Source of the DNA: a virus
Lineage: Duplodnaviria > Heunggongvirae > Uroviricota > Caudoviricetes
Direction: 5' to 3' (one strand)
DNA: 40,340 nt
Virus record (IMG/VR): IMGVR_UViG_2872185964_000009
Shown here: positions 33,875-35,605 of the stretch, piece after piece
Layout of the letters: each line of letters begins with the position of its first letter
Position numbering within the stretch: the stretch's first letter is position 1
Notes under the pieces: generated by a model
Seen by the model: the letters and a program-made list of their open reading frames with translations, nothing else
Told to the model about the DNA's origin: nothing
Databases searched by the model: none
Made by a program: the position numbers and the translations under genes

Positions 33875-34498
33875 ATGAAAGGGTTATTATCTTTACTCAT
33901 CTCTTCTATGATATTCCCCGTGCATGCCGGAATGGTTATTTTCGGGACCCGTATCATTTACCCGGCAGAGCAGAAAGAGGTCATGGTACAACTGATGAAT
34001 CAGGGAAACCGCTCTTCGCTGATGCAGGCGTGGATTGATGATGGCGACACGTCTCTGCCGCCAGAAAAGATTCAGGTTCCTTTCATGTTAACGCCACCAG
34101 TAGTGAAAGTAGCGGCCAATTCTGGGCAACAAATAAAAATTAAAATCATGCCTAATAAATTACCCAGTAATAAGGAAAGTATTTTTTATCTTAATGTTCT
34201 GGATATTCCACCGAATAGTCCAGAACAAGAAGGTAAGAATGCACTGAAGTTTGCGATGCAAAACAGAATCAAATTGTTTTACCGGCCGGCGGGTATTGCT
34301 CCGGTGAATAAAGCGACCTTTAAAAAGTTACTGATAAATCGCAGTGGCAATGGATTGGTGATAAAAAATGACTCAGCTAATTGGGTGACGATTTCGGATG
34401 TCAAAGCTAATAATGTCAAAGTCAATTATGAAACTATTATGATTGCCCCCTTAGAAAGTCAGAGTGTTAATGTCAAAAGTAATAATGCAAACAACTGG
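33875..34498 (+). pseudogene. yehC: Fimbrial chaperone YehC, 3' end (about 30 codons) removed by IS1
   Basis: MKGLLSLLISSMIFPVHA signal peptide and PapD-like chaperone sequence; ORF runs into the IS1 terminus at 34499. Confidence 0.8.
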
Positions 34499-34513
34499 GG
34501 TAATGACTCCAAC

Positions 34514-34891
34514 TTATTGATAGTGTTTTATGTTCAGATAATGCCCGATGACTTTGTCATGCAGCTCCACCGATTTTGAGAACGACAGCGACTTCCGTCC
34601 CAGCCGTGCCAGGTGCTGCCTCAGATTCAGGTTATGCCGCTCAATTCGCTGCGTATATCGCTTGCTGATTACGTGCAGCTTTCCCTTCAGGCGGGATTCA
34701 TACAGTGGCCAGCCATCCGTCATCCATATCACCACGTCAAAGGGTGACAGCAAGCTCATAAGACGCCCCTGCGTCGCCATAGTGCGTTCACCGAATACGT
34801 GCGCAACAACCGTCTTCCGGAGCCTGTCATACGCGTAAAACAGCCAGCGCTGGCGCGATTTAGCCCCGACGTATCCCCACTGTTCGTCCAT
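34514..34891 (-). CDS. insB: IS1 InsB reading frame (MATQGRL variant)
   Basis: 125-aa ORF. Confidence 0.95.
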
Positions 34892-34935
34892 TTCCGCGCA
34901 GACGATGACGTCACTGCCCGGCTGTATGCGCGAGG

Positions 34936-35211
34936 TTACCGACTGCGGCCTGAGTTTTTTAAGTGACGTAAAATCGTGTTGAGGCTAACGCCCATAATGC
35001 GTGCAGTTGCCCGGCATCCAACGCCATTCATGGCCATATCAATAATTTTCTGGTGCGTACCGGGTTGAGAAGCGGTGTAAGTGAACTGCAGTTGCCATGT
35101 TTTACGGCAGTGAGAGCAGAGATAGCGCTGATGTCCGGCAGTGCTTTTGCCGTTACGCACCACCCCGTCAGTAGCTGAACAGGAGGGACAGCTGATAGAA
35201 ACAGAAGCCAC
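34936..35211 (-). CDS. insA: IS1 InsA
   Basis: 91-aa ORF. Confidence 0.95.
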
Positions 35212-35266
35212 TGGAGCACCTCAAAAACACCATCATACACTAAATCAGTAAGTTGGCAGCATCACC

Positions 35267-35605
35267 TTAGCGATGATAAAAAATCTCACCGTCGTAGGCT
35301 TTAATGATTTTACCGTCGGTGTCGCTGATCAACACGTACGCGCCACCCATATAGGTCCAGTGCGTCCCGGCATCAGGCGCGGGCAGGTTACGTAACTGCC
35401 ACTGCTTAATGTTGTACTCATCGGTGCGGTACATCTCTGGGACGGTATCGCCTGGTTTGAAATGCTTAAAGTCAGCAATGAAACTGCTTAACTCATACTT
35501 AGAAATTCCCGAGGTATTGGTCGAACCCGCGGTGGCTGGTGCGGCCCAGGCGGCACTGGTAACCAGCAAAAGCGCACCCAGCAACATCTTATTTTTAATG
35601 GTCAT
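35267..35605 (-). CDS. rcnB: Periplasmic nickel/cobalt homeostasis protein RcnB (YohN)
   Basis: 112-aa ORF MTIKNKMLLGALLLVTSAAWAAPATAGSTNTSGISKYEL..GEIFYHR; RBS GGAGAG. Confidence 0.9.
   Translation of the reverse strand: MTIKNKMLLGALLLVTSAAWAAPATAGSTNTSGISKYELSSFIADFKHFKPGDTVPEMYRTDEYNIKQWQLRNLPAPDAGTHWTYMGGAYVLISDTDGKIIKAYDGEIFYHR

Follow-up and report, generated by a model that had tools for sequence, protein, structure and literature searches.

Simple insertion of IS1 produces a direct target duplication of 9 bp, occasionally of 8 bp. In addition, Reif and Saedler are said to have described, in 1975, deletions adjacent to IS1 in the gal region of E. coli in which the element itself was retained. 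Among the insertion sequences (IS) of Shigella, IS1 is the most abundant, and interruption or deletion by IS is the main route of convergent gene loss in this group (PMC7373316). Several surface structures have been lost in Shigella through such IS activity, including flagella (flhDC), curli (csg), and type 1 fimbriae (PMC7373316, PMC6854044). Yeh is a core-associated fimbrial type of E. coli that was intact in 92% of surveyed strains (PMC3559732); yehC and yehA are pseudogenes in S. flexneri 2457T (PMC6854044), and yehABCDE was absent by array hybridization in S. flexneri serotype 6 only (PMC3225857).

Here, we analyzed a 40,340-nt stretch of DNA (hereafter, the window) in which a single IS1 stands in place of the usher and adhesin genes of the yeh operon. 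This lesion resembles the classical gal deletions in that it starts at an IS1 terminus, leaves the element intact, and lacks a target duplication, and in having a variable far endpoint within A/T-rich DNA. It differs from them in being natural and fixed in a pathogen lineage, whereas the gal deletions were laboratory-selected, and in that the active end of the element is one that we infer. With the known IS-driven losses of surface structures in Shigella it shares the organism group, the dominance of IS1, and the loss of a non-essential adhesion organelle, but here the Yeh operon is hit instead. A search of the literature on Shigella and yeh returned no specific description of an IS1-truncated yehC with deletion of yehBA; the configuration is present in public finished genomes.

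The gene order in the window is metG, apbC, yehE, yehD, truncated yehC (yehC'), IS1, rcnB, and truncated rcnA, in agreement with annotated E. coli loci, and the Yeh locus thus has its expected position between apbC (mrp) and rcnB. The first gene of the locus, yehE (DUF2574; 32675..32956, plus strand), is intact at 93 aa and matches Pfam PF10836 over its full length (E 2.8e-44). The major fimbrial subunit gene yehD (33245..33787, plus strand) is likewise intact, encodes a 180-aa protein matching Pfam Fimbrial (PF00419), and represents a minority allele. The native part of the periplasmic chaperone gene, yehC' (33875..34498, plus strand), comprises codons 1-208 of 224. Beyond 34498 its reading frame continues through 26 codons supplied by IS1 and stops at 34577-34579; in the resulting 234-aa fusion product, the Pfam PapD_C domain ends at profile position 44 of 63, compared with 61 of 63 in a full-length YehC (locus L004, introduced below). 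On the far side of the element, rcnB (35267..35605, minus strand) is intact at 112 aa and matches Pfam RcnB; its TAA (35267-35269 on the minus strand, TTA on the plus strand) forms the first three bases past the IS1 end. The 9-bp flanks of the element are AACAACTGG (34490..34498), which abuts the IRR end, and TTAGCGATG (35267..35275), which contains the rcnB stop codon and the last two rcnB codons. A first-pass annotation, made from the letters of the window, had taken yehD to be intact, yehC to run into the IS1 terminus at 34499, the rcnB stop codon to adjoin the IS1 end at 35267, and the 9-bp flanks to be unequal, and each of these readings holds. The operon is therefore incomplete in the window: yehB and yehA are absent, and the PapD_C domain of YehC is truncated.

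The element itself is a complete IS1 of 768 bp (34499..35266, minus strand), which is the length required of IS1. Both 27-nt end probes matched its termini, GGTAATGACTCC... and ...GGCAGCATCACC, with 0 mismatches, and its terminal inverted repeats are imperfect (GGTAATGACTCC... and GGTGATGCTGCC...). The transposase genes read on the minus strand, which places the IRR end next to yehC and the IRL end next to rcnB. insA (34936..35211, minus strand) is intact, with 91 aa and the Pfam domains Zn_ribbon_InsA and HTH_Tnp_IS1; the insB' reading frame (34514..35019, minus strand) is open throughout in a three-frame translation. An A6C motif for -1 frameshifting lies at 34960..34954 on the minus strand, with insA followed by insB' in the -1 frame, and DDE_Tnp_IS1 gene calls are recorded on a locus identical to the window (L008). 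The yeh IS1 is 98.6% identical to the IS1A copy of locus L001.

There are six IS1 copies in the 40 kb, five complete and one truncated and divergent, with two of them 62 bp apart. All five complete copies together differ by one substitution and two single-base indels, and the yeh IS1 is at most one substitution away from each of the other four. These copies served as internal controls for the state of the target site: perfect 9-bp duplications flank the copies at 15996, 19777, and 25115, that is, three of the four other complete copies, which makes the missing duplication at the yeh IS1 meaningful. This copy is thus not in the state left by a simple insertion, and its identity as IS1 is unaffected.

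Several of the other copies merit description in their own right. The copy at 25115..25881 has a perfect CAGAAGGAG duplication and lies 62 bp from the neighboring IS1; it is a recent, strain-level insertion, since its site is empty in CP001063.1, PTES01000001.1, and AMKC01000068.1. Together with the copy at 15996 it measures 767 bp, each having a single-base deletion, and these may be real frameshifts or sequencing errors. The copy at 24285..25052 is a second complete IS1 without a target duplication, flanked by TAGAGGCAA and AGAGTGAGG. It adjoins a 48-aa DUF1307 (yehR-like) fragment (24010..24156, from the Pfam gene calls of the identical locus L008), and a stack of IS3-family fragments with a truncated WGR-domain gene (25882..28432) lies between it and metG. 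In K-12, yehI to yehQ lie between yehR and metG; these genes appear to be missing here, and the 24285 copy therefore probably marks another IS-bounded deletion. Finally, the truncated copy at 1..309 is a divergent variant, about 91% identical to the other five, that occurs alongside the expanded resident variant.

The common E. coli allele of yehD and yehC shows just 76-83% identity to that of the window over about 32800-34000, and we therefore sought a reference sharing the window's allele. Of 5,407 matching E. coli genomes, only 37 were at least 99% identical to the window over 32700-34498. The reference used, E. coli ECCTRSRTH03 (L004), belongs to these 37, has no IS in the region, and carries the same yehD allele, with 99.6% nucleotide identity in yehD and 99.6% over 6 kb on the left side. 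Positions 28432..34498 and 35267..36406 of the window correspond in the alignment to L004 2732..8809 and 12488..13652, without a change of strand, so that the flanks of IS1 are collinear with the ancestral yehD-yehC...rcnB-rcnA order and orientation. What the window lacks is L004 8810..12487, exactly 3,678 bp, for which the 768-bp IS1 is substituted with no base extra or missing at either end. The lost segment contains the last 51 nt (16 codons) of yehC, beginning TATCTGACCATTATCG..., the usher gene yehB, the gene of the adhesin-like subunit yehA, and the 81-bp spacer between yehA and rcnB. This spacer includes a hairpin terminator (L004 12462-12482), and the right breakpoint falls inside its T tail. 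No trace of the deleted yeh DNA was found elsewhere in the 40-kb window, and in particular no contiguous yehB-yehA, the finding that the first-pass annotation had named as evidence against a deletion. Its proposals that IS1 had replaced yehB-yehA with the 3' end of yehC, and that the remnant operon lacks usher and adhesin, are thus borne out by the comparison with L004.

From the 3' end of yehE through yehD into the 5' half of yehC (32800..34000), the window is only 70-83% identical to the common E. coli allele; apbC and the 3' end of yehC, which flank this stretch, are 98-100% identical to it. This identity profile suggests that the major-subunit region underwent allelic replacement long ago.

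To determine where else this arrangement occurs, we looked up the exact 234-aa YehC-IS1 fusion protein and the identical YehD in public sequences. The fusion protein was present on seven contigs, all of them already deleted; carriers include CP026872.1, CP001063.1, CP026866.1, CP026867.1, PTES01000001.1, and a draft contig of 21 kb. Over 16.5 kb, the window and CP026872.1 are 100% identical (a text search of the literature for CP026872 found nothing), and CP001063.1 is presumably Shigella boydii CDC 3083-94. Both 60-nt junction strings were found exactly in six of six loci from independent assemblies, and all ten places with an identical YehD show yehD, the 234-aa yehC', IS1, and rcnB in this order. 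These assemblies come from different technologies: CP001063.1 is a finished genome, and the 21-kb draft contig spans both junctions. The YehD of the window is indexed in 369 blocks of the collection, and in 301 of these the longest carrying contig is 5-10 kb, a length range that fits short-read assembly of a unique 6-kb segment with IS copies on both sides. Because at least ten public assemblies, produced independently, have identical junctions, we take the deletion as real, as fixed in a Shigella boydii-type lineage, and as old enough for the entire lineage to share it. The context to the right of rcnA differs among the sister genomes, and rearrangement therefore continued after the deletion.

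Shigella is merged into E. coli in GTDB. We queried 5,426 complete E. coli genomes with each junction, asking for a single unbroken match. The yehBA segment has matches in 5,369 of these genomes and is covered to at least 80% in 4,588. The left junction of the window was found only in strain 300081. This strain has a simple IS1A insertion in yehC (L004 8801-8808) in the same orientation, with a AATAACTG duplication and with yehBA intact; the insertion site is within 1 bp of the left breakpoint of the window and lies in a different yehC allele, indicating an independent event. The right junction was absent from all 5,426 genomes, the nearest case being strain 1506, in which another IS1 variant in the opposite orientation ends 3 bp away. 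A precursor with an insertion in yehC only would have the IRL end of IS1 joined to AACAACTGGTATCTGACC, and an insertion on the rcnB side would have an IS1 end at the rcnB stop with a TTAGCGATG or TTTTTAGCG duplication. A precursor with IS1 in yehC and a duplication in a Shigella background was not found by the junction search or the YehC-fusion and YehD look-ups, nor did these look-ups yield an intermediate with two IS1 copies on the background of the window. As for the survey of related strains for the undeleted state, suggested in the first-pass annotation, an undeleted locus with the same allele exists in L004, and these searches gave no precursor carrying IS1 on a Shigella background.

At least nine other E. 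coli strains have IS1-bridged yeh deletions independent of that in the window. In L004 coordinates, the positions to the left and right of a single IS1 without duplication are 6978 and 12485 in 1506, 8872 and 12240 in 2022CK-00450, 8872 and 12105 in 21964, 8872 and 11430 in GN03590 and GN03507, 8832 and 11859 in 1008S19 and N9, a point within yehD and 12408 in 361, 10114 and 11180 in AR_0061, 11178 and 11520 in H1, and 7724 and 8700 in 6EVA. As in the window, a single IS1 without duplication replaces part of the yehD-yehA interval in these strains; its orientation is that of the window except in 1506 and 6EVA, and breakpoints agree to within 1-3 bp at several sites. The deletions differ from that of the window in their breakpoints, IS1 variants (IS1A, IS1B, and a 92.7%-identical variant), and host lineages, and none carries both junctions of the window. 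Simple insertions with duplications also occur, in the yehE-yehD spacer of FDAARGOS_943 and in yehB of 6EVA and LR-50. 6EVA thereby has two IS1 copies together inside the yeh operon, inverted and not direct.

Two of these strains form an informative pair. 21964 (L023) and GN03590 (L028) carry the same rare IS1 variant (3462..4229 in both loci; 92.7% identical to that of the window) and share the left junction, 3 bp before the yehB start codon. They belong to one lineage: their left-hand 4,229 bp differ by a single base, and their right-hand 3,024 bp are identical. The right breakpoints, both in yehA, are 675 bp apart, leaving 303 bp of yehA in 21964 and 981 bp in GN03590. The pair is a natural nested series of deletions from the IRL end of one anchored IS1, the pattern expected of one-ended adjacent deletion. 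2022CK-00450 and 1008S19 have the same topology: IS1 has the same orientation, its left end lies at the yehC/yehB border, and its right end varies.

As a whole, the yeh locus is not a hot spot for IS1. By a rough tally, about 0.6-0.8% of genomes have IS1 there, a frequency not above the approximately 1% expected from some 9 IS1 copies per 4.9-Mb genome over 5.6 kb, and we rejected this idea on that ground.

At the level of single sites, IS1 endpoints fall within 1-3 bp of each other at four places in yeh, 4 pairs among 24 endpoints where 0.34 would be expected (P about 0.001; loci L001, L002, and L021-L028). In L004 coordinates these are 8808/8809 at yehC codon 208, 8872 at the yehC/yehB border, 11178/11180 at the 3' end of yehB, and 12485/12488 at the rcnB stop and terminator tail, and the coinciding endpoints come from unrelated strains and different IS1 variants. 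Such clustering agrees with what is known of the preferences of IS1 for certain regions and sequences. A bolder reading, which we consider unlikely, is that local DNA structure or a bound protein steers IS1 to these sites, and that loss of the Yeh usher is quasi-programmed and fixed by selection in invasive lineages. The coincidences are of modest value for understanding the target choice of IS1.

How might the deletion have come about? The lost interval is bounded on both sides, to the base, by a single intact IS1 whose flanks differ. We propose that IS1 would first have inserted into the 3' end of yehC at the 9-bp target AACAACTGG, with its IRL (insA-proximal) end towards yehB. The transposase would later have joined this IRL end to a target 3.7 kb away in the same molecule, in the T-rich tail of the yehA/rcnB terminator directly past the rcnB stop codon. 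The intervening DNA, comprising 16 yehC codons, yehB, yehA, and the terminator hairpin, would have been left as a circle and then lost, while IS1 would have stayed intact without a target duplication and the product would have become fixed in the Shigella boydii-type lineage. The left flank AACAACTGG is then probably one copy of the original target duplication in yehC; the order of events, the identity of the active IS1 end, and the loss of the excised circle are presumed. We moderately favor this one-ended adjacent deletion, with IS1 first in yehC, over recombination between two direct copies, because the nested pair 21964/GN03590 provides a natural parallel and because the yehC breakpoint is a proven primary insertion site; the proof is the simple insertion of 300081, within 1 bp, in the same orientation, and with yehBA intact. 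IS1 has used the right breakpoint repeatedly as well, a different variant in strain 1506 ending 3 bp away. The sequence agrees equally well with IS1 having inserted first at the rcnB stop and the deletion having proceeded leftwards from there.

In the other route, two direct IS1 copies would have been present, one in yehC and one at the rcnB stop, and RecA-dependent homologous recombination would have removed the interval together with one copy. This would give the same end product, the unequal flanks being halves of two different duplications, and it would agree with the independent use of both breakpoints as IS1 targets. IS1 is dense in the window, so a second copy within 3.7 kb is not improbable, and 6EVA shows that two copies can coexist in the yeh operon, although the copies of 6EVA are inverted and not direct. 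Recombination between homologous IS copies is also a named route of gene loss in Shigella (PMC7373316). On the other hand, it takes three events where the one-ended deletion takes two, and no genome with the YehC fusion or an identical YehD has a two-IS1 intermediate. Moreover, 21964 and GN03590 show one-ended deletion without a second insertion; explaining them by recombination would demand a separate insertion in each strain. We therefore regard recombination of direct copies as possible but on balance doubtful. With no intermediate genome found, the two routes are not formally separable, and a mosaic SNP test for a recombinant IS1 had no power, since the five window copies are nearly identical and can yield no recombinant signature. 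The first-pass suggestion of an IS1 adjacent deletion thus stands as regards the breakpoints, the lost duplication, and the gene loss; for the mechanism, the one-ended deletion is best supported, and recombination of two direct copies fits too.

Two further explanations deny that yehB-yehA was deleted by IS1 at all. If an inversion or translocation had occurred, yehB-yehA would be kept elsewhere in the chromosome by a second IS1 with the complementary junctions. The block is indeed heavily rearranged, with IS at 28432 and 36407 and differing right-hand contexts in the sister genomes, and the sequence examined covers 40 kb of the genome. However, beyond the single IS1 comes rcnB, with its ancestral orientation and on its ancestral side; an inversion would have flipped one flank or left yehBA between two inverted IS1 copies, and neither is seen. 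Since the ancestral order and orientation are preserved on either side of a single IS1, a simple inversion is excluded, and with no yehBA in the 40-kb window and the same compact junction in ten sister genomes, relocation in any form is very improbable. We give least credence to an assembly artefact, in which two IS1 copies were collapsed, or to insertion of IS1 into the junction of an older, IS-independent deletion. Assemblies classically collapse at repeats such as IS1, and the two 767-bp copies in the window may reflect single-base sequencing errors; nevertheless, the junctions are identical in independent assemblies, including the finished CP001063.1 and the 21-kb draft contig. An insertion into an older deletion junction would be expected to leave a 9-bp duplication and is ruled out by the lack of one.

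The one-ended deletion, like the recombination route, ends in a yeh remnant. From the established chaperone-usher pathway, we infer that Yeh fimbriae cannot be assembled from the window locus, because only yehE, yehD, and a truncated chaperone gene remain, with no usher and no adhesin. The coding sequence of rcnB is kept while its downstream hairpin terminator is deleted, so that transcription of rcnB would continue into IS1, with the same direction as insA. Separately from the yeh event, rcnA is cut at 36406/36407 by ISSso6. Its remnant (35824..36406, minus strand) covers positions 91-263 of 287 in the NicO profile, with the 5' end removed, and the rcn efflux system is therefore probably also inactive.

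The region around rcnA shows further changes. At approximately 35899, the remnant has a 1-bp deletion relative to 300081 and CP001063.1 that shifts the 3' end of the frame, and that is either strain-specific or a sequencing error. The interrupting element (36407..37928) belongs to the IS110 family and is annotated as ISSso6 in E. coli records. PTES01000001.1 (L009/L020) carries ISSso6 as a simple insertion, beyond which rcnA resumes and rcnR and thiMD come next. The window and most sister genomes have an IS66-family element on the right of ISSso6; this junction also occurs in E. coli FDAARGOS_943 and others and points to recombination between ISSso6 copies. No hit reached the gathering thresholds in an Rfam scan of 33000..38200, and no family was found at the non-coding ends of ISSso6.

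Taken as a type, the yeh lesion is an ordinary, already known kind of IS1-driven genome decay. Its two unique junction sequences are usable as a lineage marker. For annotation, the 234-aa YehC-IS1 fusion ORF should be treated as a pseudogene and would not be a functional chaperone. For the biology of Shigella, it is a precisely mapped addition to the documented decay driven by IS1, in which a S. boydii-type lineage has lost the usher and adhesin of its Yeh fimbriae.
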